A stretch of 64,000 nucleotides of DNA, taken from a virus. Its lineage: Duplodnaviria; Heunggongvirae; Uroviricota; Caudoviricetes. The stretch's first letter is position 1, and each line of letters opens with the position of its first letter. Location: positions 13,214 through 77,213 of the IMG/VR virus record IMGVR_UViG_3300048998_000119; one strand, given 5' to 3'. This document shows positions 16,672 to 50,428 of this stretch, in pieces. The notes below the pieces were generated by a model. The model did not search any database, was not told where the DNA came from, and was given only the letters and a program-made list of their open reading frames with translations. The translations under genes and the position numbers were made by a program.

Positions 16672-16716
16672 TCCATTTTTAACCCTCCCACAGCCGGAGC
16701 TATGAGAGGGTGTTGA
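16672..16716 (-). promoter_or_regulatory. stem-loop + A-run + RBS module, copy C
   Basis: minus: CCCTCTCA...TGGGAGGG TTAAAAATGGAGTTTAT ATG. Confidence 0.4.
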
Positions 16717-16889
16717 GATTACTTCTTAGGAACGTCGAGCGCCGGAGCGTTCTGCTTGGTCACGACTTCCTCATCCGTTTCCAGCTTGTTGTCGGTCTGG
16801 TACATTTCCTTGACCATCTTCTTCTCGGCGTCGGTGGCGTCCGGGAACTGCTTTTCCCAGCTTGCGTAGAGCGACTTGTCGTATGCCAT

Positions 16890-17153
16890 TCAATGTTCCT
16901 TTGTAAATGCAACAAGAGAAACCAGATCGATCCCAGAATCTTTGCGGGCAACTTCTTTGCCGTCCACAACCTTGGTCAACGTCGGGTACTTTCTGATCAC
17001 CTTGTTTTGATGCCTGATGGGGCATTCTTCCAGCCAGTCATAAATAATTTCTCTGCCCGGAAGTAGAGTTTCTCGGAAGCAATCGATCGTCTCGACCAGC
17101 TCCTCGCTTTTCATCGACCAATGAGCTACGTAGACAATGTAGATTGTGCCCAT
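16890..17153 (-). CDS. hypothetical protein (87 aa)
   Basis: ORF track. Confidence 0.35.
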   Translation of the reverse strand: MGTIYIVYVAHWSMKSEELVETIDCFRETLLPGREIIYDWLEECPIRHQNKVIRKYPTLTKVVDGKEVARKDSGIDLVSLVAFTKEH

Positions 17154-17566
17154 TCTAATCTTTCCTCATGCGTCAATCGATATAACATGAGTAGTGTGTC
17201 TCCATGACAACGTTTCGGAGCACATAGACACAGCATGTTTTTACCGTCGAATTCTCGAAAATCTTGGTCTGCCACGTCTAGGTTAAGTAAACGGGTTGCG
17301 ATGTGCATAGCGTACTCGTCGCATACCTGATCACGCATCTTATCGTTCTTGATTGGTCTGTGGAGGGCCCATTTGGTGGGACGACCAATCCATTGAGACA
17401 GTCTGATCGCCGTGCGACTGCTGAAATGCTTGTTGATCACTTTGGTGTTGGTGGAAGTTTGATTCTTGGTTTCCCTCCGCATTCTCCCACCGCCGCCGAT
17501 CACTTCAACCAGTCTGACCATCGATGATCTTCGCCGTGTCCACATCCATGGTGAAGAAGCTGACAC
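17126..17566 (-). CDS. DUF4326-like protein (start uncertain)
   Basis: C-terminal motif NMLCLCAPKRCHGDTLL resembles the DUF4326 CxC(A)P..CHGD signature. Confidence 0.45.
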   Translation of the reverse strand: MSASSPWMWTRRRSSMVRLVEVIGGGGRMRRETKNQTSTNTKVINKHFSSRTAIRLSQWIGRPTKWALHRPIKNDKMRDQVCDEYAMHIATRLLNLDVADQDFREFDGKNMLCLCAPKRCHGDTLLMLYRLTHEERLEWAQSTLST

Positions 17567-18355
17567 CGCCTTCCGAGATAAAGCTCTTGGACTTGGCGTC
17601 CTCCGGCATCACCTCATCTGTCTTACGTGGACGCCAGAGCCAGTTGTCCTCGTCCAGGGACCAGCCGGGCGGAAGCTCCTGACCCAGCCATTCTAATTTA
17701 GCCATGTGTGCTCTCCAACATTTCACCCAAGTCACGATACACAGTCATGAGGTATTCCATAAGCTGTTCACGTGTCTTGAGCTCTGCTTCACCGTTCTCG
17801 ATCACGCTATAAGTGTTGAGGCTGACTTGAATGACTTCGAATATCATTCAGCTACCGTGATCACGATGTTTACTTTCTTGGCGTCGAAAATTTCGAGACG
17901 TTTGATGTCGCCTCGATAAGACAACAGCCACTCATCCAACTTAGTCTTGTCGGATAGTCGATAGACATCTTTGCCATTGCTTCCCGCTTGTTCGCTGGAA
18001 GATAGCGCCAATACAATGAACATCAGTCAGGCTTAACCGGCTTGCGATAAGCTTCCCTCAACGCCACCTGCTTGTTCTTCTGCTGAAAGCGTTCGTATCC
18101 GATCACGTTGGTAGAAGCCTGGATCGCAGCTTCGCGATCCTCCAACGGCAGTTCCCTCATCGCTTTCGCCGTCGAGAATTTGTCCATAATGCACCTCAAT
18201 TTTGATGTCAAGTTTCTCGGCCTGATACACTTCTGCCTGCTTGCGTTCGTCGCCGCTGAGCCGCAGTATATGCGCGGTGAGAAGATCTTTGGTTTTGAAC
18301 TCGTACTTGACTTTGCCTTTACCGTTTATATGTGGAAGTAAACAAATATACATAA

Positions 18356-18682
18356 TTACAGCACCTCTGTGAGAATACGCCAGCCAGTCATTTTCAGACC
18401 TTCGAAAGTGACCTCGATCGGTTTACCCTTCAACCCACTGAGGTCATCAGTCTTGGCGTCATGAAGAAGGTTACGCAAGAAATCAAAAAGATCTGCTTTT
18501 TGTTGATTCCAGGCCTCCAATGAGTATTCCGCGGTCTCTCTTCGATTAGCCCATGGTCCTTTAAAATCATGTATGCTTCCATCGGGAGTCCACATGTAAA
18601 TAGTAATGCCGAACTGCGCATCTTGGTAGCCACCATAGCCAAAGCCTACTTCGGTGATCTTACCTAATGACTTTACTGTCAT
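18356..18682 (-). CDS. hypothetical protein (108 aa)
   Basis: ORF track. Confidence 0.4.
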   Translation of the reverse strand: MTVKSLGKITEVGFGYGGYQDAQFGITIYMWTPDGSIHDFKGPWANRRETAEYSLEAWNQQKADLFDFLRNLLHDAKTDDLSGLKGKPIEVTFEGLKMTGWRILTEVL

Positions 18683-19113
18683 GAGAACACCTCTTTAAGA
18701 AGCGCGCCGATGTTGTCGTGGATGTAAATCCAGAAGATAACTCCCGCGATCTCGTGAGGTATGCCCCACTCACCCAAGTTTTCCGCGTCGAGTCGTTCTT
18801 CGACGAGCTTGTCCATCTTCTTGTCGAGCAGGACCGCCTGCGTGTGGGTCAGCTGCGGAAAAAGCTCCCGCATGCGTGTGACACGTTTCTCGATTCCCGC
18901 GACGTCCGGATCAATACTTGGCATCGCGAATCCTCCGAGCAATCTCTCTGAACGACTCACGGTCATCGTTGCGGCTGGCGAGGTAATCAGCTTCTTCTTG
19001 ACTAATCTTGAAAAAGTCACGCACGGCTTGAGGCGGCATCGCGTAATTGTGTTTGTTATACATATAACGTCGTTCTTGATCGGCGTGCCAACCTTCAGGT
19101 TGGAAAAGGTCAC
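18679..19113 (-). CDS. hypothetical protein (144 aa; possibly MazG-like helical fold)
   Basis: ORF track; weak EIAGVIFWIYIHDNIG similarity only. Confidence 0.3.
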   Translation of the reverse strand: MTFSNLKVGTPIKNDVICITNTITRCRLKPCVTFSRLVKKKLITSPAATMTVSRSERLLGGFAMPSIDPDVAGIEKRVTRMRELFPQLTHTQAVLLDKKMDKLVEERLDAENLGEWGIPHEIAGVIFWIYIHDNIGALLKEVFS

Positions 19114-19237
19114 AAGCCACCCCCAGGCAACAGAAGCCCTCTTCTGTCCTCAGCGAGCCTTGTGCCTGCTTGTACTCACCTGACTCAAGGGCGCTCGCCC
19201 ACGCCTCTCTCCTCTCGGAGAAGCTTCCATTCAGCAT
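18911..19237 (-). CDS. ALRSGEYKQ/CCLGV family small protein, paralog C (start trimmed)
   Basis: WASALESGEYKQ, FCCLGVACDL, FREIARRIR. Confidence 0.45.
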   Translation of the reverse strand: MLNGSFSERREAWASALESGEYKQAQGSLRTEEGFCCLGVACDLFQPEGWHADQERRYMYNKHNYAMPPQAVRDFFKISQEEADYLASRNDDRESFREIARRIRDAKY

Positions 19238-19685
19238 AGACGTTGATAAATTCTTTTCTACGACTTTGGGCGTAGCGGACGGTCGCGCCGGTGCCGCTGT
19301 GAGAGTAGCCATTAAAGTTGACCAGAAGCTTTTGAGAGTCATCGACTATAGCCTTATTTCTGAGGAGTGTAAGTTTGTCGTCGTACTTCTCGCCAAACAC
19401 ACGTTCGACTTCGGCGTGGTCGCGCAGAGACGCCCAACGGAACCTGCTCTGCTTCGGCCAAGCATTTGCCTGATCCTCGTAGGGAATGTAGCAACCATAA
19501 GGTATACCCAACTCCCAGCAAGCTGTGGCGCACGCCTGATCCCAGCCCAACGCCATTCCTTGAATAACCGCCTTGGGTGTAATTTCTTTCAGATGAATCT
19601 TAGCCACCTCCACCAGAAGCTGGAAGGCCTCTTCCGAGTAACCTCCCAGATCCGGTGGACGATGACCGCTTACGCCCAGAATCAT
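19185..19685 (-). CDS. YpsA-like SLOG domain protein (DUF1273-like)
   Basis: N-terminus MILGVSGHRPPDLGGY...QGMALGWDQACATACWELGIPYGCYIPYE resembles YpsA/DUF1273. Confidence 0.5.
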   Translation of the reverse strand: MILGVSGHRPPDLGGYSEEAFQLLVEVAKIHLKEITPKAVIQGMALGWDQACATACWELGIPYGCYIPYEDQANAWPKQSRFRWASLRDHAEVERVFGEKYDDKLTLLRNKAIVDDSQKLLVNFNGYSHSGTGATVRYAQSRRKEFINVYAEWKLLREERGVGERP

Positions 19686-20077
19686 ACCGGAAAAGGATTC
19701 TTATCTGGATAGACAACACCGTTTACGCCAGTATGCCAGAAGAGCGCTTCGCAGTAAGCCTCTCTCGCCATAACCAGTGTCCAGCAGCCTCCCGGCGAAA
19801 CGTCCACAATCTTGTGCATCGCGCGGGCGTCACGATAAAGCGACTCACCTTCACGATTGATCTGCACATCTTCAATATACAAACCGGATCGATCTGAACG
19901 CGCCCATCGCTCTTCGACGTACCAGCCTTTCAGAATATGACTGTGGAAGTCCCACGGATGACTATGCGGGTCGGAGTGGTCACGATCCTTCAGATGATGT
20001 ATAACCGGAGAGAAGGGCCAAGGTCCCTCCCCCAAGTGATACTTCGTGAAGTGTGGACCCATTTCTTCAACACGCAT
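19682..20077 (-). CDS. His-rich hypothetical protein (131 aa)
   Basis: HSDPHSHPWDFHSHIL cluster suggests metal binding. Confidence 0.4.
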   Translation of the reverse strand: MRVEEMGPHFTKYHLGEGPWPFSPVIHHLKDRDHSDPHSHPWDFHSHILKGWYVEERWARSDRSGLYIEDVQINREGESLYRDARAMHKIVDVSPGGCWTLVMAREAYCEALFWHTGVNGVVYPDKNPFPV

Positions 20078-20553
20078 CAGCCGAAAGTCTTCTGCATGAC
20101 GACCTGGACCTTGTTGTCCGTGCTGTCGAGCCGAACCTGATACACGTCGCGATCGAGTGCGTTGATCACCGCCAGCGCGTTCTCGATGTCGGCGACCGAG
20201 GGATCCACCTGAACGAGATTCTCGACGCGTGCGTTCTTGTACTTGCGCGGCGGCTTCTTTTCGGTCAGCGGACGTTCCAAATCGATGATGAACACGTTGT
20301 CTGAAGTCTCAGTGGCCTCATACTCTGTCTTTCCCCATTGTTCACCGGAAAGCGTCGACGCGATCAGTGCCTGACAAGGCAGATCCGCATTGCTGTGCTC
20401 GCCGGTGCCCAGCGTCACTGCGCCTCCTCGACGAACGTAAACGGTGCGGTTATGAACATTAACGTCGAAATGAGTACCATACTTTTCGCGGAATGCCTTG
20501 CTCGTGTAGAGAAGCAGACCGCTGGTGGTGTTGCTGATTGCGAACTTGGTCAT
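20077..20553 (-). CDS. hypothetical protein (~158 aa, start at MTKFAIS)
   Basis: AAGGAAA RBS; 1-nt spacer from upstream stop. Confidence 0.4.
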   Translation of the reverse strand: MTKFAISNTTSGLLLYTSKAFREKYGTHFDVNVHNRTVYVRRGGAVTLGTGEHSNADLPCQALIASTLSGEQWGKTEYEATETSDNVFIIDLERPLTEKKPPRKYKNARVENLVQVDPSVADIENALAVINALDRDVYQVRLDSTDNKVQVVMQKTFG

Positions 20554-20554
20554 G

Positions 20555-21334
20555 TCATTTCCTTTTGATTTTGAGCGTTGCGATCGAAGATATTTTTGGA
20601 CTGTCTCCTGAAGCTGTGGAGACAGGCATTGTTGGGGCGGTTGGAGATTTAAGCTGCGGACTCTTTCTGATTTGAAGCGGCTTATCTTCGCTCCCCGACG
20701 TCTCTTTGGGCTTCCCAATGATCAATCCTTTCGTGGAAAGTTTCTTTGGTGGTTCATAAGGAGTCCAGTTAGGCTTACGTCCGGGTTCAGTGTAAGTAGC
20801 TCCCGGAAGTTTTTCTGCAGCATAGTAACGTCGATAGCCGACGACGGCGTCTTCTGTGGACGGTCCGACATAGTAGGCATCTCTGTTTGGCCCATAGGCT
20901 TGCGCCGGAGCGGTCCAGTTGCGCCACGCGAACAACTCAAGCCAAGGCTTCATTTGAGCCACGGCTCGTCGTCCGTTTCTGAACTTCAAAACATCCTTGT
21001 TTCTGTGTCTGAAGTCGTATTGCCGAATGATTTCCTCCAGATGGAGAACAAGCCATTCGACGTTACCCAAGCCTTCGGTCAACCAGATACCGCAGGGGTG
21101 CTTCGGATTCTGGACACCAACCCAAGGATCGGGAGCGTGCAGCGCGTCGTCTTCCGGATCAAGTTGATTCAACTCAAAGCCACTGACGAGTTCCTCACTC
21201 GACAACGGGCCGTGATACTGCATCGCCCAACCGGACAACAACTGCGTGGATTCATTTATCTGTGAACGACAGTGGACGTCGTGCAGCCATTTCGCCGCCT
21301 GAACGGGATCCCTGTCCAGGAAGAAAATGTTCAC
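20555..21334 (-). CDS. hypothetical protein (259 aa), basic Pro-rich C-terminus
   Basis: ORF track. Confidence 0.45.
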   Translation of the reverse strand: MNIFFLDRDPVQAAKWLHDVHCRSQINESTQLLSGWAMQYHGPLSSEELVSGFELNQLDPEDDALHAPDPWVGVQNPKHPCGIWLTEGLGNVEWLVLHLEEIIRQYDFRHRNKDVLKFRNGRRAVAQMKPWLELFAWRNWTAPAQAYGPNRDAYYVGPSTEDAVVGYRRYYAAEKLPGATYTEPGRKPNWTPYEPPKKLSTKGLIIGKPKETSGSEDKPLQIRKSPQLKSPTAPTMPVSTASGDSPKISSIATLKIKRK

Positions 21335-21716
21335 GCGTTGAGTTGCTCCACGATGATGTTGAACGCGCCCTTCACAATGGCATAATCAGTGCTGGCGTAT
21401 CCGATGGAAGTGTTGTCGCTGTTATCTGGATCCGGACTGAGCCACTCGATGCTGTCGATATTGATAGCTAGGGGTTGCAAGGTTTTTGCGTCGATGTACA
21501 TACGAAACTTAGGCATGGTTGAAGTGTCCCATCACAATTATGAGATTGACGACGAAGAGAACGGCGGCGACAATGAACCACGGCGTGTCTTCCTCACGAT
21601 AGAAGACGAAGAGGCAAACAGCGGTCATCAGCAACGCGATGTAATTCAGAATGATCATGTCAACTCCAAAATTATTGCCCCCAGACATCCGTTAGGACAT
21701 CCAGGGGCAGTTCGAC

Positions 21717-22340
21717 TTACTTCTTCTTCGGGGTCGCGACCTTCACGGGTGCGGCTTCCTCGACTTCAGGTTCGGCCTCAGTGGTCTGAGCGGCAGCCTT
21801 GGCGGCAGCCTTCTCAGCCTGATAGCGCGCGAGACCTTCCTTGGCCTTCGGGTTCAGAGCGCGCTTGACGCGACCTGCCTCGTAAGCTTCCAGAATCGCG
21901 GTCTTGTTCTCGATCACGAAGTCGGCGACGTCCGCGTTGCCGTCTGCGAGCGTGGTGAGCTCGGTCTTGACGACAGCCGTCTTCTCGTCGGCGTCCATAC
22001 GCGTGACCTTCGGCCAGCGGAAGGTATCCAGGATCGCGGCGGCGTTGTCGGCCACGAACTTGAACTTCGGCTCGTTGGCGTCAGAGATAGCCTTGAGCGC
22101 CTTTTCGAGCTGGTTCTTCTCGCTCTTGCTCACACGCTTGATCGTACCTGCCTCGAAAGCATCCTCGATCTGCGTGCGGTTGTCGATGAGCCACGTCACC
22201 AGTTCCGCGTTGTCGTCGATGAGACCATTCAGCGCCTCGGTGATAACCGGACGACGCATGTGGTCCATAGCCTCAGCCTTCGAGTCGAAGGTCTGGCCAT
22301 CGGGAGTGCGGTATACTTGGTTCAGTTCCATGTCAGCCAT
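21717..22340 (-). CDS. hypothetical protein with internal duplication, Ala/Lys-rich tail
   Basis: two copies of LIDNRTQIEDAFEAGTIKR / VIENKTAILEAYEAGRVKR. Confidence 0.45.
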   Translation of the reverse strand: MADMELNQVYRTPDGQTFDSKAEAMDHMRRPVITEALNGLIDDNAELVTWLIDNRTQIEDAFEAGTIKRVSKSEKNQLEKALKAISDANEPKFKFVADNAAAILDTFRWPKVTRMDADEKTAVVKTELTTLADGNADVADFVIENKTAILEAYEAGRVKRALNPKAKEGLARYQAEKAAAKAAAQTTEAEPEVEEAAPVKVATPKKK

Positions 22341-22355
22341 GTGATTTCTCTCTTG

Positions 22356-22388
22356 ATAAAAAGCTCGTCTCCACCCGGAGACGGCGTG
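22356..22388 (-). terminator. putative rho-independent terminator (CGTCTCC-gggt-GGAGACG + TTTTTAT on minus strand)
   Basis: read on minus strand directly upstream of gene 21717..22340. Confidence 0.45.
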
Positions 22389-22559
22389 ATTGGGTCGTTG
22401 GAAATAAGGGTTAATAAAACGGGGTCCGGTCTGAGTGCTCGCGTCGTGGTCGCCGTTACAAAGTTCCCGTTTGGGCCAACGCGAGTGCGTCGGGCGGGGC
22501 GGCGGAGGACGCGAGTGACCGGGGTCCGGGCGGCACACCGGACAGCATAATCATATCAG

Positions 22560-22823
22560 TTACTTCCGATCATGTTGCGGACGAGGACGTGACTTTTCGA
22601 TCACCTTGATCACGTCGTCGACCACGTGATTGTCCTTGGGCCATACACCCGACCAGACCTTGAACGCCTTGGTCCGATCGCCGTTTTCGTAGTTCAGATG
22701 ACCCTTGTCGTAGACGGCCACACGATTTTCTTTGATGACGAAGCAGCGAGTGGCTCCCAGATCCTGCGTGAGAAACTTGACGGGGCCGTTGTAACGATCG
22801 CTGAAACCGATGTACTTGTTCAC
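22560..22823 (-). CDS. hypothetical protein (87 aa)
   Basis: ORF track. Confidence 0.4.
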   Translation of the reverse strand: MNKYIGFSDRYNGPVKFLTQDLGATRCFVIKENRVAVYDKGHLNYENGDRTKAFKVWSGVWPKDNHVVDDVIKVIEKSRPRPQHDRK

Positions 22824-23008
22824 TTTACTTCACCTTCAATGAGATCGAGTTCACTGGTCTTCTTTTCGTAGTAGTGGCCCTCCCGAGTGAACTTCTCGAG
22901 TTTGCCCTTTTCGTTCTTGGCCGTCAGAGGAAATTTGCCGTGTAAGTTATGAAGCACGATCGTGAACAGCTTGCCTTTGCCGTTCTTGTAAGACTTGTTG
23001 GGAAGAAA
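22820..23008 (-). CDS. hypothetical basic protein (~62 aa, start at MFLPN)
   Basis: ORF track, trimmed. Confidence 0.3.
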   Translation of the reverse strand, partial: FLPNKSYKNGKGKLFTIVLHNLHGKFPLTAKNEKGKLEKFTREGHYYEKKTSELDLIEGEVK

Positions 23009-23171
23009 CATAACTAACCTCAGAGGTCGAGTACACCCTGCGCCCATCGCGGTGTAATTTGTTTGTCGATAATCTTGTCGTAGTATTCTTGCATCTTCTC
23101 CGGATCAATGTGTTCCACATCGAACTGATCTCTGTATGCACGTCGCAGAGCTGAACGTTGTTGGTCTCGCG

Positions 23172-23468: not shown

Positions 23469-23471
23469 TTC

Positions 23472-28825: not shown

Positions 28826-28872
28826 ATTCACGGTGATCTCCAATTTTTGAGGAGGCTCATCGGCCTCCTCAG
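28826..28872 (-). promoter_or_regulatory. stem-loop + A-run + RBS module, copy A
   Basis: minus: GAGGAGGCC-gatga-GCCTCCTC AAAAATTGGAGATCACC GTG. Confidence 0.4.
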
Positions 28873-28873
28873 A

Positions 28874-29065
28874 TTATCCTTGTAGTTCAAGTGGACCCAC
28901 GTATTCGTTCCACTCGGTGCTGGTCAGTTCCAGAAAGTAATTTGGATCTTTGTATTCCTCGTTGACCAACACTGTACGCGACATCACAATCGCGATTTTG
29001 GGTATCATCGTCAAATTCTCTCCGCCGATGAAATGCATCATCCTGACAGGATAATAAGACAACAT
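28874..29065 (-). CDS. hypothetical protein (~63 aa) overlapping RNR 3' end
   Basis: ATG with GGAG RBS inside the last 40 nt of the RNR gene. Confidence 0.3.
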   Translation of the reverse strand: MLSYYPVRMMHFIGGENLTMIPKIAIVMSRTVLVNEEYKDPNYFLELTSTEWNEYVGPLELQG

Positions 29066-36716: not shown

Positions 36717-37239
36717 TCTTCTTCTCCGACAGAATTCGTTCGATGTCGACCACGCGAATTGGCTGGTAGCCGTTCAGCATGACTGCGGTCGCGAACTTGT
36801 AATACCAGAGAGCTTTCTGCATTTCCTGCGTCTCGTCGTCCTTCGCACCCATACGCGAAAGATACTTGTCGCCGCACATATCTCGCACGGCGTGCACGAA
36901 TGCCTGCATGTTGTTGCGCCAGAAAGGTTTATATTGCAGATGCTCCAACCACTGAATTGTGTCGGTGATTTCGCCGTTCGAATTCTTGATCTCGTACAAC
37001 GACTTGTAGTGGCTGGGATTGATCGCGTTTTTCTTTTCTTCGGTCACGGTAGGGTACACGCCTCCTGTACGATAAAGTTGCCATTCAGCACCTGTATTGA
37101 AAATGGCAATAATCTCATCCTTGTTGTCCACCATCACTACTCTAAATGATGCAACTCTGTCGAAATCAGAAGCAAAGATATTTGACGGTGGGAGTGAACC
37201 GATGAAGGTTTCATTCTCATACATTTTAAAAGCGGTCAT
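36709..37239 (-). CDS. hypothetical protein (176 aa), possibly DUF3310-like
   Basis: INPSHYK motif reminiscent of DUF3310. Confidence 0.35.
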   Translation of the reverse strand: MTAFKMYENETFIGSLPPSNIFASDFDRVASFRVVMVDNKDEIIAIFNTGAEWQLYRTGGVYPTVTEEKKNAINPSHYKSLYEIKNSNGEITDTIQWLEHLQYKPFWRNNMQAFVHAVRDMCGDKYLSRMGAKDDETQEMQKALWYYKFATAVMLNGYQPIRVVDIERILSEKKSG

Positions 37240-37289
37240 AGTCTAATTCCAAATTATTGGAGGGTCGCCGAAGCAACCCTCCTTTCCCG

Positions 37290-37862
37290 TCAGTCAAACT
37301 TGTCTTTCTTCACGGCGATCTTCGGCTTCGCAACCGGCACCTCGTCGTCAGCGTCGTCGGTGGATGTCTGGACTTCCGTCTCATCGTCTTCGTCGACGAC
37401 TTCCATTTCTGTTTCCTCGAAGTCATCGTCATGCGGCTTCGGAGTGTACTTGACGAGCCTCGTCAGCTTAATGCCCTGCAGGACATTCGCCACGCCCTTG
37501 CCGCCGACTTCCTTCGTGTACTCGTACTGATACACACGAACGTCGCCGATGGACTTGTTGCCCACGATCGCCGGATCGCAGTCTTCCAGGTTGCCCTTCT
37601 TCACTTCCACAGGATCCGACTCTTCGCCGCTCTTCTTGTAGATGCGCTTCTTGAGCGTGGTCTTCCAGTATGGCTTCTCGCCATCTTCCTCTGGGACGAC
37701 CGCCTTCATCGTCAGACCCTGAGCTTCCCATTCCTTCCGCTGAGCCGAGGAGTAGGTGCGGATCTGCACTTCCCAAGTTGGGTTTTCACGGTTGAACTTC
37801 TTGTTGGGACGGTTGGGGACACAACGAACAAACCAAAGTTCTGCGTTCTTGATCAAAGCCAT
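37290..37862 (-). CDS. putative ssDNA-binding protein (acidic C-terminal region)
   Basis: position in replication block; HDDDFEETEMEVVDEDDETEVQTSTDDADDE. Confidence 0.4.
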   Translation of the reverse strand: MALIKNAELWFVRCVPNRPNKKFNRENPTWEVQIRTYSSAQRKEWEAQGLTMKAVVPEEDGEKPYWKTTLKKRIYKKSGEESDPVEVKKGNLEDCDPAIVGNKSIGDVRVYQYEYTKEVGGKGVANVLQGIKLTRLVKYTPKPHDDDFEETEMEVVDEDDETEVQTSTDDADDEVPVAKPKIAVKKDKFD

Positions 37863-37941
37863 GTTATTCTCACTTGAAACCACATACAGACTTCTGTACG
37901 CGTAGACGGGATAATTAAACGGGTTCCCGTAACCCAAAGCA

Positions 37942-43474: not shown

Positions 43475-44256
43475 TTAATATTGACGAGCGACCCGCCGGT
43501 GCCCTGGACGAACGTGCAGTTCTTGTTTCCGCAGACGGATTTCAGCGTGTCCAACGTGCGAAGCTGAACGAACTGATCTGCATTCAGACCCAGACCATTC
43601 TGGTAGGCTCGATCCGCTTCGGCGCGCTTGGCTTCTGCGTTTTTGCGCTGCTCTTCAGCCAACACAGTCTTCTGCATCGTCAGCACACGCTGTTCCTGAG
43701 AAGCCGTGGCGATGCGCTGATCCTTCACAGAATCAGGCGGATTTGCCCGACCAATAGTGAACCGAACGAGTCGCACAGGGAACTTGTTCCGGGCGAAGTA
43801 CTGTTCCAGCCGTTCCGAAACTTCGGCATCGATCGAGGCTGCGGCGGTAGTGCTGATGGCCGTCTCGTTCAGACCATGCTTCTTGACGGCGTCGCGGATG
43901 TACGACAGCAGTTCGGTGCTGATGTTGTTGTCGTACCAGTTCGAGCCATAACGCTTGACGAGCGCGACCGAGTCGGTGACCTGCGTGACGACAGAAGCGT
44001 CGAAGTCCAGAGGTACACCGTCGCTGGTCATCAGATCGTTTAGCTCAAGCTTGTGCTGCTCCGGCTGCATGTTGACGGTGATCGCACTAGTCGACCAAGC
44101 GACTAGTTCGGTGCCCTTGACGGGAGTGTCGAACACACCGCCCGAGCCGAAGAACCAGGGCTTTGCGTTGAGAACTTTTTCCTCGTTGGGCTCAGTACTC
44201 ACGTAGGAGCAAGCCGAAGTGGCGAACAGAAGCGAGAGAAGAAACATATTTTTCAT
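43471..44256 (-). CDS. SPFH (band-7/HflKC-like) lipoprotein
   Basis: lipobox LLFATSAC; RLVRFTIGRANPPDSV and Ala/Glu/Gln-rich AEEQRKNAEAKRAEADRA tail typical of SPFH C-termini. Confidence 0.5.
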   Translation of the reverse strand: MKNMFLLSLLFATSACSYVSTEPNEEKVLNAKPWFFGSGGVFDTPVKGTELVAWSTSAITVNMQPEQHKLELNDLMTSDGVPLDFDASVVTQVTDSVALVKRYGSNWYDNNISTELLSYIRDAVKKHGLNETAISTTAAASIDAEVSERLEQYFARNKFPVRLVRFTIGRANPPDSVKDQRIATASQEQRVLTMQKTVLAEEQRKNAEAKRAEADRAYQNGLGLNADQFVQLRTLDTLKSVCGNKNCTFVQGTGGSLVNIK

Positions 44257-44269
44257 GATGGAGTCCTTT

Positions 44270-44300
44270 CCATATAAGATACCATTATTTCCGCGTTATC
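44270..44300 (-). promoter_or_regulatory. conserved 32-nt element copy 2
   Basis: GATAACGCGGAAATAATGGTATCTTATATGGAAAG immediately 5' of the SPFH gene. Confidence 0.6.
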
Positions 44301-44604
44301 AATGATCGTAATAACCACGAGCACGTCGTCGGGCAGCTTCCAGAATTCGCTCGGCGCCCGCTTCACCCATAGCCGCATACTCATAGAGTGTCGGTTGAAT
44401 GCCGTTACTGTGAGCAGACAGCTGACTCACCGTGCCGCTGGGCTTGATGGTCTTGACGCGACCTTTGTTACAGATGGTTTGAAAGACTTTCTTCCAACCC
44501 ATTCCGTAACTGAGGCCGAACGCCATATTCTTGGCCACCTTGTCGCCACCGAAGAGGACCAAGGTGAGCGCGGCCAATTTCCAGAAGAAATTCTTCATGC
44601 TCAT
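44299..44604 (-). CDS. hypothetical membrane-associated protein (101 aa)
   Basis: ORF track. Confidence 0.35.
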   Translation of the reverse strand: MSMKNFFWKLAALTLVLFGGDKVAKNMAFGLSYGMGWKKVFQTICNKGRVKTIKPSGTVSQLSAHSNGIQPTLYEYAAMGEAGAERILEAARRRARGYYDH

Positions 44605-44927
44605 ATGTCCTCGACGATTGCGTCGCCCACAGACGCCACGCTGGTCAATTCGAATATACCGATGCGAGGTCTCGACGAACTGACCATCTTTGCAGCCGCG
44701 ACTTGCGCGGACATCTTGTTGGGATACAGAGTTGATGACAGATAGGGAAAGGTGTGCAGCGGGTGATTATCTTTGGTGACACCCAGAATGATGAAGCTCA
44801 TAGTACCTCCGATGAAATCATGACATAGTTTGGACCGGCGTCCTTGAAGGCGGTTTCGGTGAGCACCGCAATGTTGTCACCTTTCAAGGTCACCGTCATT
44901 TTGCCGGGCTTGTTGACCCGAACAAAC

Positions 44928-45371
44928 TTAAATCTTATTCGCACGACGCATCCGTGCCACGCCTCCCAACGCCAGGAAGCCGACGGTCATTGCGCCCCAG
45001 GTGGCCGTCTCCGGGACCGGGGTGATGAGACCCTGCCCGCCGCCGCCGTGCCCAACTCCGCCTCCACCTGGGAAGCCACCGCCTGAGCCTGCACCTCCGC
45101 CGCCCACAAAACCGCCGCCACCGGAGCCGAAACCACCGTAGGAGAACTCGCCGCCAACGCTATCGGGCAGCGGGCAAAGAGCCAGATTACTCTCGATCTT
45201 GATGTCGCGAACTGGAGGCTCGTCGAAGACTTCCTTATGAGCCGTTTGGTTGATGTGGTGTTTGACCACAGCGATGCCGTGATTTATTTTGGCGTGATAG
45301 TGGTGAGTCGCGATTGGAGCCACCACAACGCAAGATAGTAGAACACCTTTGCTGAGCAAGTATTTAAGCAT
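44928..45371 (-). CDS. secreted Gly-rich protein with PEP-CTERM-like C-terminal sorting signal
   Basis: signal peptide; GGFGSGGGGFVGGGGAGSGGGFPGGGGVGHGGGG; C-terminus PVPETATWGAMTVGFLALGGVARMRRANKI. Confidence 0.45.
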   Translation of the reverse strand: MLKYLLSKGVLLSCVVVAPIATHHYHAKINHGIAVVKHHINQTAHKEVFDEPPVRDIKIESNLALCPLPDSVGGEFSYGGFGSGGGGFVGGGGAGSGGGFPGGGGVGHGGGGQGLITPVPETATWGAMTVGFLALGGVARMRRANKI

Positions 45372-45373
45372 GT

Positions 45374-45661
45374 CTAATCCTCTGAAAAGAGTTCCTGCAG
45401 GGTCCGTTCTGGATCCCAGCCAACTTTACGCTTTACTTCTTTCCCGTTGTGCATCAGCACAAGAGTGGGTACACCTCGCACGTCAAAGCGATGTGCCATC
45501 AGTGGTTGCTCGTCGACGTCTGACACCAACAACTCGATGTCATTTCGCTTACGAGCTTCCTCCAACGCGGGTTTCGCGGGCAACGCCCAAGACGCCCAGA
45601 ACAGCAACAACTTGTCGCCGGTGTCCAGGAGATCTTCGTTTGCTTGAGTGAGTTCGATCAT
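45374..45661 (-). CDS. thioredoxin-fold protein lacking the CxxC active site
   Basis: FWASWALPAKP aligns to Trx FWAEWCGPCK; RGVPTLVLMHNGKEVKRKVG aligns to Trx [20 protein letters not shown]. Confidence 0.55.
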   Translation of the reverse strand: MIELTQANEDLLDTGDKLLLFWASWALPAKPALEEARKRNDIELLVSDVDEQPLMAHRFDVRGVPTLVLMHNGKEVKRKVGWDPERTLQELFSED

Positions 45662-46152
45662 CGTTTCACCTTCAGACCAGCGGCGCTGAGTTTGGGCTTG
45701 GGAGCCTCCACAGGCTTTGCCTCTTCAACACTGACGGTCTCGATCAGGTTCTTCTGACCATTCATCTGCTTGGAGGCACCGGAGAGAGCGTCCTGCAGCT
45801 CGACCGCAGTCCAGACTCCTTGGTACTCACCATCCGACACAGTGACTTTGAAGCTGCCGTCCGGACATTCTGAGTCGGGAGCGACAACCTCAATCACCAG
45901 AGCACGTTCTTGACGCAGCAGACGAAGAGAGTCGCCGAGCGCGTTGATCTTGTCGCGATCGCTGAGATCTTCATTCGCCTCAAACTCGGCGTCGATCTTA
46001 ACCTGCAGCAACCACCACTTAGTTCCGCGATAAAGTTCTCTGGCTTCCTCCAGAAGTTCTTTCGCTCGGCTTTTTGTTTTGTGACCGGTGAAGGTTCCGG
46101 CCCTGACGATCGCCCAACCCGCGCCGTCTTTGGGTTTAAGAAACGGGGTCAT
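45658..46152 (-). CDS. hypothetical protein (164 aa)
   Basis: ORF track. Confidence 0.45.
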   Translation of the reverse strand: MTPFLKPKDGAGWAIVRAGTFTGHKTKSRAKELLEEARELYRGTKWWLLQVKIDAEFEANEDLSDRDKINALGDSLRLLRQERALVIEVVAPDSECPDGSFKVTVSDGEYQGVWTAVELQDALSGASKQMNGQKNLIETVSVEEAKPVEAPKPKLSAAGLKVKR

Positions 46153-46517
46153 CGACGATTGGCGCTGGACACAACCAGCTTCCCATCGTGTTTCGTCCGA
46201 ATCTTTTCCATAATGTCCGGCTGCTCGATGCGGCGCAGTTCCCGTTCGAACAACTGTTCGGGCGAGGCGCCTGTGACAGCGAAGTAAGCCGCCAGAGTGG
46301 TCAGCACACCACCGATCTCTTGACTGGTGACGCCGGGAGGTTTGGCGTAGACCTGCTCGATAAGCGCGAGCGCCTGTTCTTTTGTGACGCCTTCAACTTG
46401 ACCGAGTTCGATGCTTTCTTCCAAGAAGCGTAGCACACGCTCCTCGACGTCCATACAACGATTGCCGAAGCAATTGCGAATCCACTTGATTAAGCGGAGA
46501 GGTTGAAAATCAAGCAA
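46149..46517 (-). CDS. MazG-like nucleotide pyrophosphohydrolase
   Basis: RFLEESIELGQ ... EIGGVLTTLAAYFAVTG. Confidence 0.45.
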   Translation of the reverse strand: MLDFQPLRLIKWIRNCFGNRCMDVEERVLRFLEESIELGQVEGVTKEQALALIEQVYAKPPGVTSQEIGGVLTTLAAYFAVTGASPEQLFERELRRIEQPDIMEKIRTKHDGKLVVSSANRR

Positions 46518-46728
46518 GACGATACACTCCCACCCAAGCCACCACTGCGTAATACAGTAGTGTAGACCAAGCGATGAGCACCGCGCCGTTCCAGAGAAGT
46601 AATCCGAAGACTATCCCCAACAACGTGGTGCAAACTTCCGAAATTGCAACTGTCCCCGCCGCCATAATGATTGCGCCGAAGAGCAACCCGGCGAACGACA
46701 GTACAGTCAATAGAATTGCGATGAACAT
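46510..46728 (-). CDS. small polytopic membrane protein (~73 aa, trimmed)
   Basis: MFIAILLTVLSFAGLLFGAIIMAAG... Confidence 0.35.
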   Translation of the reverse strand: MFIAILLTVLSFAGLLFGAIIMAAGTVAISEVCTTLLGIVFGLLLWNGAVLIAWSTLLYYAVVAWVGVYRLA

Positions 46729-46729
46729 T

Positions 46730-46999
46730 TTATTTACTCTTTTCCGCAAGGAGTCTGTCCGTGTAGCCGTGGTTGTAGGCGTGACAGATGCTGATGACGA
46801 CGAAGGCGAGCTCACGGTCTGGGACTTGGTGAGACACAAAGTAGGCAAGTGTGTACTTGCTTTGGTAGTCCCGTGTGTACGGGATGCATACCTTCTCCAC
46901 CGCTTGTTGTTCGAGTTCCAGGGTGCGGACTTCGACGTGACCATTGGATTCTTTCGGCAGGAGGATTGAAGATGCGGCGAACAGCAGAATACCGATCAT
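46730..46999 (-). CDS. small secreted protein (89 aa)
   Basis: N-terminal signal-like MIGILLFAASSILL. Confidence 0.35.
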   Translation of the reverse strand: MIGILLFAASSILLPKESNGHVEVRTLELEQQAVEKVCIPYTRDYQSKYTLAYFVSHQVPDRELAFVVISICHAYNHGYTDRLLAEKSK

Positions 47000-47168
47000 T
47001 CGGTGTCTTCCTTTATGCAGTGAGAAATCATCATGTTCTCGTTTCGAGCGTGGAGCTCGATGAACGAACGGCGGGCGACTTCACAGATCTTGCGACTCGA
47101 GAAGTCTTGGATCTGCTGGCTGCAGACGTTGGGTTGCATGCAGATCATGACGAGAAATCCAAACATGG

Positions 47169-47552
47169 CTAATCCTTTTTAAAATGTTTCTGAATACGGT
47201 CGCAGAGTTCAAGTGTCATTCTGTCGTCCTGAGTCGTCACAATCTCGGGTCGACTTTTCTTCAGCTGACGGCTGAGCCATTTATCTTCGGCGATTGATGT
47301 CTCTAATGTTCGATACTGATCAAGATAAACTGAACTCACTTTGCTGTCGCGAGTCAGTTGTATTCTGACGCCGGAGTCATGCAAGAGCCACGAATCTGTT
47401 CGTTGCCAGCCGGGACTGAAAAGAAGCTTGCCGATAAGTTCAACACTCTGACGACGGCGCTGTAAGTAGCCCCCATTTATCAAGAAAGGAGAGCCAAAAC
47501 AGATGGTGAGGCCGGTGGCTACTACCACCAGGAAGAATATAAAGTCAAACAT
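47169..47552 (-). CDS. membrane protein (127 aa)
   Basis: N-terminal TM helix. Confidence 0.4.
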   Translation of the reverse strand: MFDFIFFLVVVATGLTICFGSPFLINGGYLQRRRQSVELIGKLLFSPGWQRTDSWLLHDSGVRIQLTRDSKVSSVYLDQYRTLETSIAEDKWLSRQLKKSRPEIVTTQDDRMTLELCDRIQKHFKKD

Positions 47553-47937
47553 CGGTCATCTTACTCCGCAAGAGTTTTGCGGCGTCGCCCGCCTTGTCGG
47601 GACGCACAATCAAGTGCTTGACGCGACGATATAGCCACTTCTTGTCGCCTTTGGTTAGCTCGATTGCGTAGCCGGGTATATCTACGCCTCTGATCTTTTC
47701 GTAGTCGTAGTCGAGAGCAATCTCGACACCGGTTGCGGTATGCTTCAAGTAGCGGCCTTCCATAAACCAACCATTTATAGCCGCAATCTCACCGATAACC
47801 GCTAACGCGGGATCCTTGCGTTCACCGTAGGAAGCGAAGGGTCGCACGCCGTCGACCATCCACGACAGCAAGACGACCATGAGCACCGCTCCACCGATAC
47901 CGAGTGCGGAAGCGAGAAGAAATTGAATTACAATCAT
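47545..47937 (-). CDS. membrane protein (130 aa)
   Basis: N-terminal TM helix. Confidence 0.4.
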   Translation of the reverse strand: MIVIQFLLASALGIGGAVLMVVLLSWMVDGVRPFASYGERKDPALAVIGEIAAINGWFMEGRYLKHTATGVEIALDYDYEKIRGVDIPGYAIELTKGDKKWLYRRVKHLIVRPDKAGDAAKLLRSKMTDV

Positions 47938-48164
47938 TACAGTACCTCACAAGTTTCGTTGAAGAGCGCTTCGGCGAGATCCAGCTTAGTGCCATGCTTG
48001 ATGAGGTGATCCTCCAGTATAAGCTTTATGTCCAGAATCTGTCGGATGTCTCGGTTTGCTCTGAAAGTGACTTTCTCTCGGTTGAGCCAAACGAAGAAGA
48101 CCAGCGGATGATCGGTGGTGTGAATGCCCGCGAACAACCACTCTTGAATGATACGTTCCGTCAT
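47937..48164 (-). CDS. hypothetical protein (75 aa)
   Basis: ORF track. Confidence 0.35.
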   Translation of the reverse strand: MTERIIQEWLFAGIHTTDHPLVFFVWLNREKVTFRANRDIRQILDIKLILEDHLIKHGTKLDLAEALFNETCEVL

Positions 48165-48742
48165 ATGTTCAACTCCTTGAGCTGCAGGAGACGCTTTACG
48201 ATTTGATCTTCCGTGAAACGATCGTACAGACCGTCCAGAGAAGGAGTCTCACGTCCGTCGCCCGGTTGAAAGGCGCGGGTGCTCGCCCAGGTCGGCAGCT
48301 TGTCGGCGAATTGCGTCAACAGAAGAACGGTGTCCGTGTCGACGACGATGCTGTGGATCTCCGAGGCGTGCTGATGGTACGACTCACCTTCCTTGTGCAG
48401 CATGCTGGACTCGATCGACAGCAGTGTTTCGCGCTTCCAGACGAAACCGGAGCCGCCGTTGAGCGGTGTCTCGTAGTCGAATTCTTGGAAACGCGTGTGG
48501 CGAGGATCACCCCAGCCACTTTTGTATTTGTTGTTGCGAACTTCTCCGGCCAATACCGTGGTGGAAAAATCATAACGATGATCGTGCGGCACGACGATTT
48601 CGGCGTCGGTCTTCAAGTTGTCGAAGAAGTAAGCTTTGATCGTCAGCGTATCCGAACGATGCAGACAGATGTAGTCGAGTCCTTTCGAGTGGAAGTTGCG
48701 GAAGCTGTTGGCGGCGATGGTTTCGACGTCGTCGTATCTCAT
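48161..48742 (-). CDS. putative cupin-fold / 2OG-Fe(II)-oxygenase-like protein
   Basis: VPHDHRYDF (HxD) and HQHASEIHSIV. Confidence 0.35.
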   Translation of the reverse strand: MRYDDVETIAANSFRNFHSKGLDYICLHRSDTLTIKAYFFDNLKTDAEIVVPHDHRYDFSTTVLAGEVRNNKYKSGWGDPRHTRFQEFDYETPLNGGSGFVWKRETLLSIESSMLHKEGESYHQHASEIHSIVVDTDTVLLLTQFADKLPTWASTRAFQPGDGRETPSLDGLYDRFTEDQIVKRLLQLKELNI

Positions 48743-49227
48743 TTGGCGTATCCTTTATAGTGATTGAGAAAGTTTCCGTGAAAACAATTTTCGCTGAACC
48801 CTGACGGAACGCCGTGGTCGAGAAAAAAGTAAATACGTTCGGCCGCACCCTTGGCGGTGTTGTCGAAATGGGACCACATACCGCCGAACATCCACGCGAA
48901 CTCAGATGAAATCGCATCGCTGCCTTCGGAAAAGACTGGACAGAAGTTACGTTCGCAGTAAGCACTCCAGTCTATAGTGCTGCCGGGAAAATCACTGTCG
49001 ACCGCCAGAAAACCAGCGCTGGGACCGTGACCAACTGCGCAGGCGACGGCACCACAGTTGTGCACACCACCGTTCTCGCGAGCGTATTTATTTCTGATCT
49101 CAAACTCTCGTCCCCAGAGACCATCCTCGACCACGCTGAAGTAAGAACTCATATTGAAGCTGTCGTAGTTCTCGGGAAGCTCAAAGAGATAGTCGGCGAG
49201 CGTCTTGAGGTTGCCGCGATTAACCAT
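48739..49227 (-). CDS. tandem paralog 1 of unrecognised family (CGAVACAVGHGPSAGF motif)
   Basis: start trimmed to MVNRGNLKTLADYL; shares three blocks with paralogs 2 and 3. Confidence 0.6.
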   Translation of the reverse strand: MVNRGNLKTLADYLFELPENYDSFNMSSYFSVVEDGLWGREFEIRNKYARENGGVHNCGAVACAVGHGPSAGFLAVDSDFPGSTIDWSAYCERNFCPVFSEGSDAISSEFAWMFGGMWSHFDNTAKGAAERIYFFLDHGVPSGFSENCFHGNFLNHYKGYAK

Positions 49228-49675
49228 TGTAGATCTCCACGAATGCACGATAGGAATAACCCTTGAAGACTTCCGGCACACCGTGCTCGAGATAGTAGTT
49301 GATGCGCTTGGCGGCACCATGAGGTGTGTTGTCGCAGAAAGACCAGAATGAACTGAACATCCACTCGAACTCGCGCGTGTTGTTGCCATCTTCGTCGCGC
49401 ACATCGCAGAAGAGACGATGAGTGTACACATCCCAGTGGACTTCCACGTCGTTGAGTTCATGTTCCTGAAACAAAAAACCCGCCGAAGGACCATGACCCA
49501 CAGCACAGGCCGCAGTTCCACAACGCGAGACTCCACCGTTGTTCAGTGCGTAGTCTCGTTCGTCGGCGGGAGTGTGGGCGTAGAAGAAACCCGCCATGTC
49601 GAATTCGGCGTAGTCTTCCGGCAGCGTGAGCAGGTAGTCGGCGAGCTTCTTGAGGTTGTCGCGGCGGTTCATGCG
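49220..49675 (-). CDS. tandem paralog 2 of unrecognised family
   Basis: start trimmed to MNRRDNLKKLADYL; CGTAACAVGHGPSAGF; HGAAKRINYYLEHGVP. Confidence 0.6.
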   Translation of the reverse strand, partial: RMNRRDNLKKLADYLLTLPEDYAEFDMAGFFYAHTPADERDYALNNGGVSRCGTAACAVGHGPSAGFLFQEHELNDVEVHWDVYTHRLFCDVRDEDGNNTREFEWMFSSFWSFCDNTPHGAAKRINYYLEHGVPEVFKGYSYRAFVEIYNG

Positions 49676-50151
49676 ATGTACTCCTGATAGATGGGGACAT
49701 AATAACGAAAGCTTTTGCAAACGTCGAAACTCTCCGGCACGCCATTTCTCAGATAGTAGTAGATGCGTGCGGCGGCTCCGTGAGGTGTGTTGTCGTAAGG
49801 CGCCCACCTACCGCCAAACATCCAGCTGAAAGCATTGGCAGCTTCTGGGCTGAAGCGACGACCGACGATGAAGTTGGCGTAGGTATATTCCGGCCACATC
49901 ACTCCACCGCCTTCTGAAATGAACTCTTCGGTAAAGAGAATACCGGCGGTAGGTCCGTGACCAACCGCGCAAGCCACGGCTCCGCACGCGCCCACACCGC
50001 CGTTGTGTAGAGCATACTCACGTTCCACTGAGGTGTGAACACCCTCCATGAAAGATATCATGTTGAAATGTTCGTAGTCCAGCGGAAGCGCCGACAGATA
50101 ATCGGCGAGCTTCTTGAGATTTTCACGCTTGTCCATCTTGGAGCCTTTCAT
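49669..50151 (-). CDS. tandem paralog 3 of unrecognised family
   Basis: MDKRENLKKLADYL; CGAVACAVGHGPTAGI; HGAAARIYYYLRNGVP. Confidence 0.6.
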   Translation of the reverse strand: MKGSKMDKRENLKKLADYLSALPLDYEHFNMISFMEGVHTSVEREYALHNGGVGACGAVACAVGHGPTAGILFTEEFISEGGGVMWPEYTYANFIVGRRFSPEAANAFSWMFGGRWAPYDNTPHGAAARIYYYLRNGVPESFDVCKSFRYYVPIYQEYIA

Positions 50152-50395
50152 AGTTGTCGTAGATGTACTCAGCCATTTGCATGAGATTCAGCGCGGACTG
50201 CTTGGTGAGGAAGCGAATGAAACAAAACGGTTCGGCGTTAATCTCGATTGTGTCGGCGTTCTCTTCCGTGATCGGTTCGTCGCCTTTGACGGCGTGGAAT
50301 GTGATGCAGGGAAACTTATCTTCATCCCAGTTGGGCACCATAGCGAAACGACCGGTGCCGATTTCTATTCCAGGAATAACCATCTGAATTTCCAA
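50123..50395 (-). CDS. hypothetical protein (90 aa)
   Basis: ORF track; preceded by stem-loop element. Confidence 0.4.
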   Translation of the reverse strand: MEIQMVIPGIEIGTGRFAMVPNWDEDKFPCITFHAVKGDEPITEENADTIEINAEPFCFIRFLTKQSALNLMQMAEYIYDNYERLQDGQA

Positions 50396-50428
50396 TTTTT
50401 AGGAGGAAGCTTTTTACGGCTTCCTCCA
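50388..50428 (-). promoter_or_regulatory. stem-loop + A-run + RBS module, copy B
   Basis: minus: GGAGGAAGC-cgtaaaaa-GCTTCCTCC TAAAAATTGGAAATTCAG ATG. Confidence 0.4.

Follow-up and report, generated by a model that had tools for sequence, protein, structure and literature searches.

The window analysed here is a stretch of 64,000 nucleotides from a tailed virus of the Caudoviricetes (IMG/VR record IMGVR_UViG_3300048998_000119, positions 13,214 to 77,213), and its subject is a recurring module in which an intercistronic stem-loop is joined by a short A-rich tail to the ribosome-binding site (RBS) of the next gene. All genes of the window lie on the minus strand and leave very few intergenic gaps between them. 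A PHROGs search of the window proteins identifies a tape-measure protein and a T7-like single-subunit RNA polymerase (RNAP; phrog_414, E = 1.6e-118) as well as a DNA polymerase, a primase/helicase, a ribonucleotide reductase (RNR), a portal protein and the large terminase. The RNAP is 738 amino acids (aa) long, and this T7-like enzyme is combined with a tape-measure tail module in a window of 52% GC. Metagenomes hold 439 homologues of the RNAP at E <= 1e-50 on contigs 60-90 kb in length (77 kb for that of the window itself), and judged by this protein the window phage is a member of a large uncultivated family with more than 400 metagenomic relatives. The nearest isolates by RNAP are the roseophages DSS3_PM1/VP1, which share 32% identity (the best among 50,697 phage records), and a megablast search of 14 kb of the window against phage genomes returned no match. 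The relatives compared below are 16 IMG/VR loci and seven closer loci with gene calls, designated by L numbers, with a GC span of 33-57%.

The window carries five modules (S1-S5, Table 1), all on the minus strand and all of the same order: a stop codon, 2-8 nucleotides (nt), a GC-rich hairpin of 9-15 bp, 7-9 A-rich bases consisting of A and T only, GGAG or GGAA and the start codon, which in S1-S3 lies 5-6 nt past GGAG/GGAA. Each of them occupies one of the rare intergenic gaps directly past a stop codon, and they are found 5-8 kb apart through the middle region, all within the early/middle part (50.4 to 16.7 kb), while the structural gene block has none. A scan of the window with a descriptor consisting of an A/T run of 5-10 followed by GGAR and directly adjoining a helix with a folding free energy (dG) <= -16 finds five sites on the minus strand and none on the plus strand, compared to a mean of 0.077 and a maximum of 2 in 300 dinucleotide-preserving shuffles; the modules are real and non-random. 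The string AAAAAT(T)GGA is found in the 64 kb at S1, S2 and S3 only and never on the plus strand. A sixth, weaker match near 40735-40690, inside a small open reading frame (ORF) conserved in relatives, is taken as chance. An earlier note on this DNA had described S1, S2 and S3 as a recurring stem-loop right upstream of ribosome-binding sites, and both the three minus-sense positions and the recurrence itself are borne out at the RNA level; the count has to be raised by two further full modules, S4 and S5. Its description of 8-9-bp stems with a GGAGG-like 5' arm applies to S2 and S3 (the arm also to S4) but not to S1, the longer stem of which has CCCTC on the 5' arm and GGGAGGG, the G-rich arm, on the 3' side. 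The genes that follow the modules are heterogeneous, and those right after S1, S2 and S5 encode hydrophobic peptides for which one or two membrane helices are predicted.

Table 1. Coordinates and letters of the modules, of the promoter-like motifs and of other features of the window, with orthologous hairpins from related loci (SD, Shine-Dalgarno sequence; letters in the sense orientation)
Feature	Position	Strand	Letters	Context
Module S1	16663..16721	minus	TAA tctcaaca CCCTCTCATAGC tccg GCTGTGGGAGGG TTAAAAATGGAGTTTATATG; tail+SD TAAAAATGGAG (16681-16671)	stop TAA 16721-16719; 13-bp hairpin 16711-16682, UCCG loop, two G·U pairs; ATG 16665-16663 of 54-aa two-helix membrane peptide (predicted; 16665-16501)
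Module S2	28829..28876	minus	TAA tc TGAGGAGGC cgatga GCCTCCTCA AAAATTGGAGATCACCGTG; stem arms TGAGGAGGC/GCCTCCTCA; tail+SD AAAATTGGAG	stop TAA 28876-28874 of small ORF after RNR gene; 9-bp hairpin 28871-28848; GTG 28831-28829 of 41-aa hydrophobic peptide (28831-28706)
Module S3	50381..50438	minus	TAA ttaatcct GGAGGAAGC cgtaaaaa GCTTCCTCC TAAAAATTGGAAATTCAGATG; stem arms GGAGGAAGC/GCTTCCTCC; tail+SD TAAAAATTGGAA	stop TAA 50438-50436; 9-bp hairpin 50427-50402, 8-nt loop; ATG 50383-50381 of 86-aa protein
Module S4	37237..37292	minus	hairpin GGAGGGTTGCttcgGCGACCCTCC; GGAGGGTTGC ttcg GCGACCCTCC AATAATTTGGAATTAGACTATG (37282-37259, perfect-stem scan); tail+SD AATAATTTGGAA	stop TGA 37292-37290 of gp2.5-like single-stranded DNA-binding protein (SSB) gene; 10-bp hairpin 37282-37259, C(UUCG)G loop; ATG 37239-37237 of 176-aa protein
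Module S5	21656..21719	minus	hairpin GCCCCTGGATGTCCtaacGGATGTCTGGGGGC; GCCCCTGGATGTCC taac GGATGTCTGGGGGC AATAATTTTGGAGTTGACATG (21709-21676, fold-based scan); tail+SD AATAATTTTGGAG	stop TAA 21719-21717 of 207-aa lysine-rich-tailed protein; 15-bp hairpin 21709-21676, four G·U pairs; ATG 21658-21656 of 49-aa two-helix membrane peptide (predicted; 21658-21509)
Motif P1	50723..50748	minus	ACGCGGAAAATAAGGTATCTTATATG	followed by two small genes, then S3 ~300 nt downstream
Motif P, other copies	44296-44271, 42628-42603	minus		
Motif Q2	37908..37923	minus	CCCGTTTAATTATCCC	upstream of SSB gene
Motif Q3	22408..22423	minus	CCCGTTTTATTAACCC	
Motif Q, other sites	52440-52425, 11315-11300	minus		matrix from relatives, as for Q2 and Q3
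Hairpin after Q3	22383-22366	minus	CGTCTCC gggt GGAGACG then AGCTTTTTATC	between Q3 and start codon at 22340
Hairpin with T5	1188-1150	minus	GGAGTGAGGGAGGGC ttag CGGCTCTCCCTT ATTTTTG	directly past stop of 134-aa late gene
UUCG-capped hairpin with T15	41470-41433; T15 41406-41392	minus		-31.5 kcal/mol
UUCG-capped hairpin with T13	11409-11364; T13 11350-11338	minus		-28.9 kcal/mol
S4 orthologue, L149			GAGGGTCCACC tacg GGTGGACCCTT ACAATTAGG	hairpin and tail
S4 orthologue, L150			AAGGGGTCCA tttacg TGGACCCCTT TAATATTAAAGG	hairpin and tail
S4 orthologue, L151			GAGGGGACCAC ttcg GTGGTCCCCTT TTCAGTTAAGGGAG	hairpin and tail
S4 orthologue, L152			AAGGGGTGAC ttcg GTCACCCCT CATAATTTAGGAG	hairpin and tail
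S4 orthologue, L153			AAGGGGCCATC gaga GGTGGCCCCTT TTATTTCGGAG	hairpin and tail
S4 orthologue, L154			GAGGGAGTCCAC ttcg GTGGACTCCCTT GAATATTAAGG	hairpin and tail
S2 orthologue, L150			GAGGGGC ttcg GCCCCTC TTTTATTTGGAG	after RNR gene and small ORF
S2 orthologue, L154			GGGGGAGTC tttat GGCTCCCCC	after RNR gene and small ORF
S2 orthologue, L068			GGGAGTGTC ttcg GGCACTCCC TTAAAAATGGAG	after RNR gene and small ORF

The gene upstream of S4 encodes a gp2.5-like SSB (phrog_112), and a hairpin is present at the same place past its orthologue in at least 13 relatives with GC contents of 33-57% and RNAPs that are 50-73% identical, including L001-L005, L013 and L015 in addition to the loci of Table 1. The orthologous stems are 8-14 bp long and differ between genomes (GGAGGGTTGC, AGGGGACCAC, AGGGGTGAC, AGGGGCCATC, GGGAGTCCAC, AGGGTCCACC, AGGGGCTAC, GGCCACCC and others). 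A first MAFFT alignment of the S4 orthologues proved structurally inconsistent, and covariation was instead counted over nine sequences of 41 nt registered by the top ten stem pairs. In this set, the register of which leans towards structure, 98.9% of cells are paired, both sides change in nine of the ten pairs and the number of compensatory cells is 27, compared with 7.8 ± 2.1 for shuffles (none of 500 attains 27); sliding the partners by 1-3 columns leaves only 40-59% pairing. The compensatory changes at the S4 hairpin are plain to the eye despite the stem-chosen register. Positional orthologues of S2 follow the RNR gene and a small ORF in L150, L154 and L068, and unrelated phage contigs likewise show a hairpin-then-RBS layout after their RNR genes. 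For S5, a search through the upstream 207-aa protein found no relatives in IMG/VR, and the 650-aa neighbour of S1 has nearest homologues that are only 43% identical.

The hairpins carry a clear preference for the sense strand. Of 17 hairpins compared, 15 fold more stably in the sense than in the antisense reading (-24.3 vs -14.7 kcal/mol for S1, -26.2 vs -18.3 kcal/mol for S5), and G·U pairs number 18 in the sense and 5 in the antisense reading of the same 17. UUCG is the commonest tetraloop of the sense reading in ~400 kb of family sequence (21/720; antisense 5/528), and loops of the UNCG type cap S4 (UUCG), S1 (UCCG) and many orthologues. Because the sense fold is the more stable one and G·U pairs and UUCG loops favour the sense reading, the element works in mRNA and not as a DNA cruciform or a template-strand hairpin. 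What is seen is a stable sense-RNA structure selected between cistrons, as is characteristic of intercistronic stabiliser hairpins. T4 mRNAs contain extra-stable C(UUCG)G hairpins between cistrons, and in bacteria a repetitive extragenic palindromic (REP) element acts as a stabiliser in malE-malF. The hairpins of the window resemble both in being short, very stable, RNA-specific and intercistronic, in their UNCG loops and in the barrier to 3'-exonucleases that is proposed; unlike REP elements, they form no sequence repeat family, and the spacing from the module to the next SD is fixed.

Two further motifs divide the region into candidate gene units. Motif P (ACGCGGAAA(A)nnnGGTATCTTATATG, 26 nt) has three copies in the window, and 15 related loci that differ widely in GC (L001, L002, L005-L007, L010-L015, L069, L070, L148 and L150) carry its 13-mer core GGTATCTTATATG unchanged. 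The motif is directional and intergenic, with a small 5' hairpin and an SD after it, its spacing does not fit sigma-70, and it is considered a candidate phage-specific promoter. Motif Q (CCCGTTnAATTAnCCC, 16 nt) has about 30 sites in related loci, and a matrix built from the relatives only picks out just four positions of the window, each on the minus strand. In every relative a site is located 45-60 nt upstream of the SSB gene, and one site is found just ahead of the structural genes. Motif Q is similar to the AATTAACCC portion of the T3 promoter and is, next to P, a further candidate promoter for the single-subunit RNAP. Both motifs are conserved family-wide and, as putative promoters of this enzyme, have the shared sequence to be expected of such sites to a greater extent than the modules. 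Together with the modules they outline three candidate units: Q2, the SSB gene and S4 span ~640 nt as a promoter-gene-hairpin unit; Q3, a hairpin in the 5' untranslated region (UTR), the 207-aa gene and S5 span ~710 nt; and P1, two small genes and S3 span ~300 nt. Three paralogous genes stand in tandem just downstream of S3, at 50151-48739 on the minus strand; they repeat every ~465 bp, with blocks that are 65-79% identical in nucleotides.

The finding is real, conserved and of an ordinary kind, hairpin-then-RBS junctions being common in phage operons, and the A-rich tail in place of a U-rich one is the only unusual feature. The window tails are TTAAAAAT in S1, AAAAATT in S2, TAAAAATT in S3, AATAATTT in S4 and AATAATTTT in S5. 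An A-rich stretch before GGA is a general RBS style of this phage (AAAAAGGA, TAAAAAAGGA, CAAAAGGAA), and the hairpin-free gaps of the window show no systematic A/T run. At orthologous sites the tails are also A/T-rich, vary in sequence (TTACAATTAGG, TAATATTAAAGG, TTTTATTTCGGAG) and range from terminator-like (TTTTATTT, TTTTAAAT) to mixed (TAATATTAAA, TTACAATTA). T-rich tails are found in L153 (TTTTATTT), L151 (TTTTCAGTT), L003/L004 (TTTTAAAT) and at the S2 orthologue of L150 (TTTTATTT), and those of L153, L150 and L003/L004 supply the proximal U-tract of an intrinsic terminator; the corresponding hairpins with T-rich tails read CCCCTTTTATTTCGGAG in L153 and GCCCCTCTTTTATTTGGAG in L150. In L001, L002, L005, L013 and L015 a hairpin with an 8-nt A/T tail (TTTTAATT, TTTTTATT, AAAAAATG, TTTAAAAT) directly precedes motif P, with no RBS. 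Since motif P and not an RBS follows, the hairpin and its tail are a unit of their own which there is able to serve the upstream RNA only. This arrangement is reminiscent of the promoter-early stem-loop (PeSL) cassettes that belong to T4-type phages, in that, between small and variable genes of the relatives, a stem-loop stands directly before a promoter-like motif that is conserved; the hairpins of the window differ from PeSL cassettes in preceding an RBS and not a promoter. The statement in the earlier note that the element is not a terminator for either strand is correct insofar as no canonical U-tract follows the stem on either strand of the window, but it is too strong in view of the T-rich tails of the orthologues and is weakened again by the hairpins that stand directly before a promoter-like motif without an RBS.

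The continuum of terminator-like tails and the units that precede motif P suggest that the element acts on the 3' end of the RNA upstream of it, and it is proposed with moderate confidence that the modules mark transcript boundaries, each being a leaky terminator and/or a 3'-exonuclease barrier joined to the usual A-rich RBS. The five stem-loops would form in the sense mRNA at the intercistronic boundaries of the early/middle region, where they would act as leaky factor-independent terminators or pause sites and/or as barriers to 3'-to-5' exonucleases. The short upstream message (for instance that of the SSB gene ahead of S4 or of the 207-aa gene ahead of S5) would accumulate relative to the downstream genes, which would be translated from read-through RNA. 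The 7-9 A/T bases would stand where a terminator has its tail and at the same time provide an A-rich leader, free of structure, for the next gene, and GGAG/GGAA would be the ordinary SD of that gene. A stem of 5-15 bp that is GC-rich, has a loop of 3-8 nt and forms in the sense RNA past a stop codon, as in an intrinsic terminator, is found at the modules. Leaky intercistronic terminators that follow highly expressed genes of phages, such as T-phi after gene 10 of T7, are similar in having a GC-rich sense stem-loop a few nucleotides past the stop codon with the next RBS directly after it, and the T-rich tails of the orthologues add to the likeness. The layout of phi10, gene 10 and T-phi in T7 also has its counterpart in the three candidate units, and S4 and S5 close the short, putatively promoter-proximal ones that start from Q2 and Q3. 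Unlike these terminators, the modules have an A-rich tail of 7-9 nt, and termination at them would have to occur without the usual run of U.

Several points weigh against this proposal. A canonical intrinsic terminator requires a proximal U-tract, about 7-9 nt with at least three U directly past the stem, and the window tails have 0-2 U at this position; because of this, neither a bacterial nor a T7-type RNAP is expected to terminate efficiently at them. The window phage has U-rich signals elsewhere, so the A-rich tails seem to be there on purpose and may signal 'do not terminate'. The A-rich modules may be poor terminators by design and act mainly as exonuclease barriers or as processing or 5'-stabiliser elements. 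In the 1 kb upstream of S1 and S2, scans for P and Q find no promoter motif that can be recognised. Module-like hairpins are also located between a promoter-like motif and an RBS, at 22383-22366 of the window and at ~3601-3622 of L150 (after motif P), and these would fit a 5' role at least as well. If the modules do mark transcript boundaries, they represent the punctuation of the transcription map in a large uncultivated phage family, and combined with P and Q they give a testable operon map consisting of a promoter, an abundant gene (SSB), a hairpin and read-through genes.

A somewhat doubtful alternative is that the modules are processing sites and 5' stabilisers, where a host endonuclease such as RNase E would cut the AU-rich strand beside the hairpin, which would then cap the 5' end of the downstream RNA or the 3' end of the upstream fragment. 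The constant distance of 7-9 nt from hairpin to SD in all five modules agrees with this, as does an A-rich rather than U-rich tail, which speaks against pure termination. RNase E prefers RN|WUU, and the tails contain AAAUU/AAUUU; this motif is short, however, and is expected by chance in any AU-rich run. The hairpin-AU-SD geometry recurs in 5' UTRs after promoter-like motifs (Q3 and the hairpin at 22383-22366, motif P and its hairpin in L150, the small hairpin after P1), whereas in the relatives in which the hairpin and tail precede motif P there is no RBS to protect. Known 5' stabilisers include ompA-type 5' stem-loops and the leader of T7 gene 10 with its AU-rich stretch AAATAATTTTG. The modules have a comparable succession of hairpin, AU-rich stretch (AATAATTTTGGAG in S5 vs AAATAATTTTG) and SD, but their hairpin lies past a stop codon inside a polycistronic RNA, and a 5' end at this position would require processing.

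It is unlikely that hairpin and A-rich tail constitute a dedicated U-tract-independent signal for pausing, termination or processing that is read by the 738-aa RNAP or a partner factor in the window's branch of the family. Such a signal would let phage and host polymerases respond differently at the same boundary, and an A-tract in place of a U-tract, if functional, would bear on the way in which hairpin signals are read by single-subunit polymerases or RNases. The KP34 paper contains nothing on U-less terminators.

Control of translation was another suggestion of the earlier note, according to which the element would sequester or unmask the RBS. In its broader form, with a phage or host protein binding the stem-loop and the A-rich/GGAG stretch or with refolding of the RNA to control the small downstream genes, a translational operator is distinctly improbable. 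The module does abut the RBS, three of the downstream genes encode small membrane peptides which possibly need tight control, and AAAAUUG matches the first half, and no more, of aaAAUUGUUAUGUAA, the consensus obtained for T4 RegA by SELEX (PMC3014915). The SD and start codon are nonetheless outside the hairpin at all five sites, and no stable alternative pairing was found between the CCUCC arm and the SD. Structure prediction gives a probability near 1 for formation of the hairpin and an unpaired probability of 0.37-0.55 for the SD and start codon of the modules, the same as in 64 other genes (mean 0.47; Mann-Whitney p = 0.72). The structure and covariation analysis called for by the earlier note has upheld the stem, which recurs in relatives at S2 and S4 and covaries at S4, but not the masking of the SD. 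Orthologous sites do not conserve the sequence of the tail, the downstream genes are heterogeneous, and a Pfam scan of 91 ORFs found no RegA-like or other RNA-binding family. Cleavage by T4 RegB was also considered and rejected: the letters that follow GGAG (TTTATATG, ATCACCGTG and others) do not fit the consensus GG*AGRAYARAA (PMC3014915), and no RegB is present among the 91 ORFs.

The likeness to T7 RNase III processing sites that had been noted in the three original modules does not extend to the helix itself, and this reading is very improbable. In their intercistronic position just before an RBS all five modules agree with the T7 sites R0.3, R1.1 and R3.8, both sets belong to phages with their own single-subunit RNAP, and some T7 R-sites are paired with a promoter just upstream, to which the hairpin at 22383-22366 between Q3 and an RBS would correspond. 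Substrates of E. coli-type RNase III span about two helical turns, some 20 bp or more, and T7 R-sites are irregular with an internal loop or bulge at the cut; the window stems, in contrast, are helices, perfect or with G·U pairs, of 13, 9, 9, 10 and 15 bp for S1 to S5, with no bulge or internal loop and about half the required length. Short perfect UUCG-capped stems are typical of terminators and stabilisers. An Rfam scan of the window at gathering thresholds gave no match, and the Pfam scan of the 91 ORFs revealed no phage RNase III and no RegA or RegB family.

That the modules are themselves promoters for the phage RNAP, either N4-like hairpins or T7-like sites with initiation at GGAG, is extremely improbable. 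The phage encodes a T7-like RNAP, the AT-rich stretch followed by GGAG/GGAA superficially resembles TATA|GGGAGA, and the spacing of 5-8 kb through the middle region would suit promoters, but the modules share only ~10 A/T-rich bases and GGA, the sequence of their stems varies from site to site, an RNA started at GGAG would be leaderless, and P and Q are far better candidates. A template-strand hairpin of the N4 type is excluded for S1 and S5, where the template strand would have A·C mismatches in place of the G·U pairs, and the loops of 4-8 nt rather than 3 and the non-conserved stem sequences are likewise at variance with N4, whose hairpin promoters have stems of 5-7 bp, 3-nt loops and conserved bases. 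The ~17-23 bp common to all copies of a T7-type promoter within one genome are absent from the modules, and a Q-type promoter hidden in the tail was rejected as well, the window tails scoring at background and only L004 exceeding the 99th percentile. Read as an UP element and a sigma-70 -35 box (AAAAA+TTGGAR), the tail has a plausible -10 box only at S4 (TTGGAA-18-TAAAAT), from which transcription would begin inside the ORF, and this reading was rejected. A literature search found nothing relevant on hairpin promoters in siphoviruses with a single-subunit RNAP. Chance inverted repeats or old terminators decaying by drift, an idea to which the absence from the window tails of the U-tract present in relatives and the many weakly stable local folds of a 52% GC genome (75 forty-nucleotide windows at dG <= -17) lend some colour, are hardly credible given five sites vs 0.077 expected, all intergenic, strand-specific UUCG loops and a stem kept by compensatory substitutions over deep divergence.

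The U-rich signals of the window are found away from the modules. The hairpin with T5 at the end of the 134-aa late gene is a canonical-looking intrinsic terminator. The two UUCG-capped hairpins, each followed by a run of 13-15 T after 10-25 nt, are located at the two major gene-block boundaries with a spacing that is unusual for a terminator, and the same arrangement precedes the gene for a YfbR-like deoxynucleoside monophosphate (dNMP) phosphatase in L148, L150, L153 and L154. The palindrome AACCT-n2-3-AGGTT occurs four times within ~110 nt (11273-11168, minus strand) between Q4, the last of the four Q sites, and the first late gene, and these copies could form a protein-binding array for a regulator, packaging or an origin. 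A tRNA scan of the window found none; the long intergenic gaps with cloverleaf-like folds in L150 (4157-4604), L153 (1416-1773) and L154 (4723-5094 and 14196-14806) probably hold tRNA genes.

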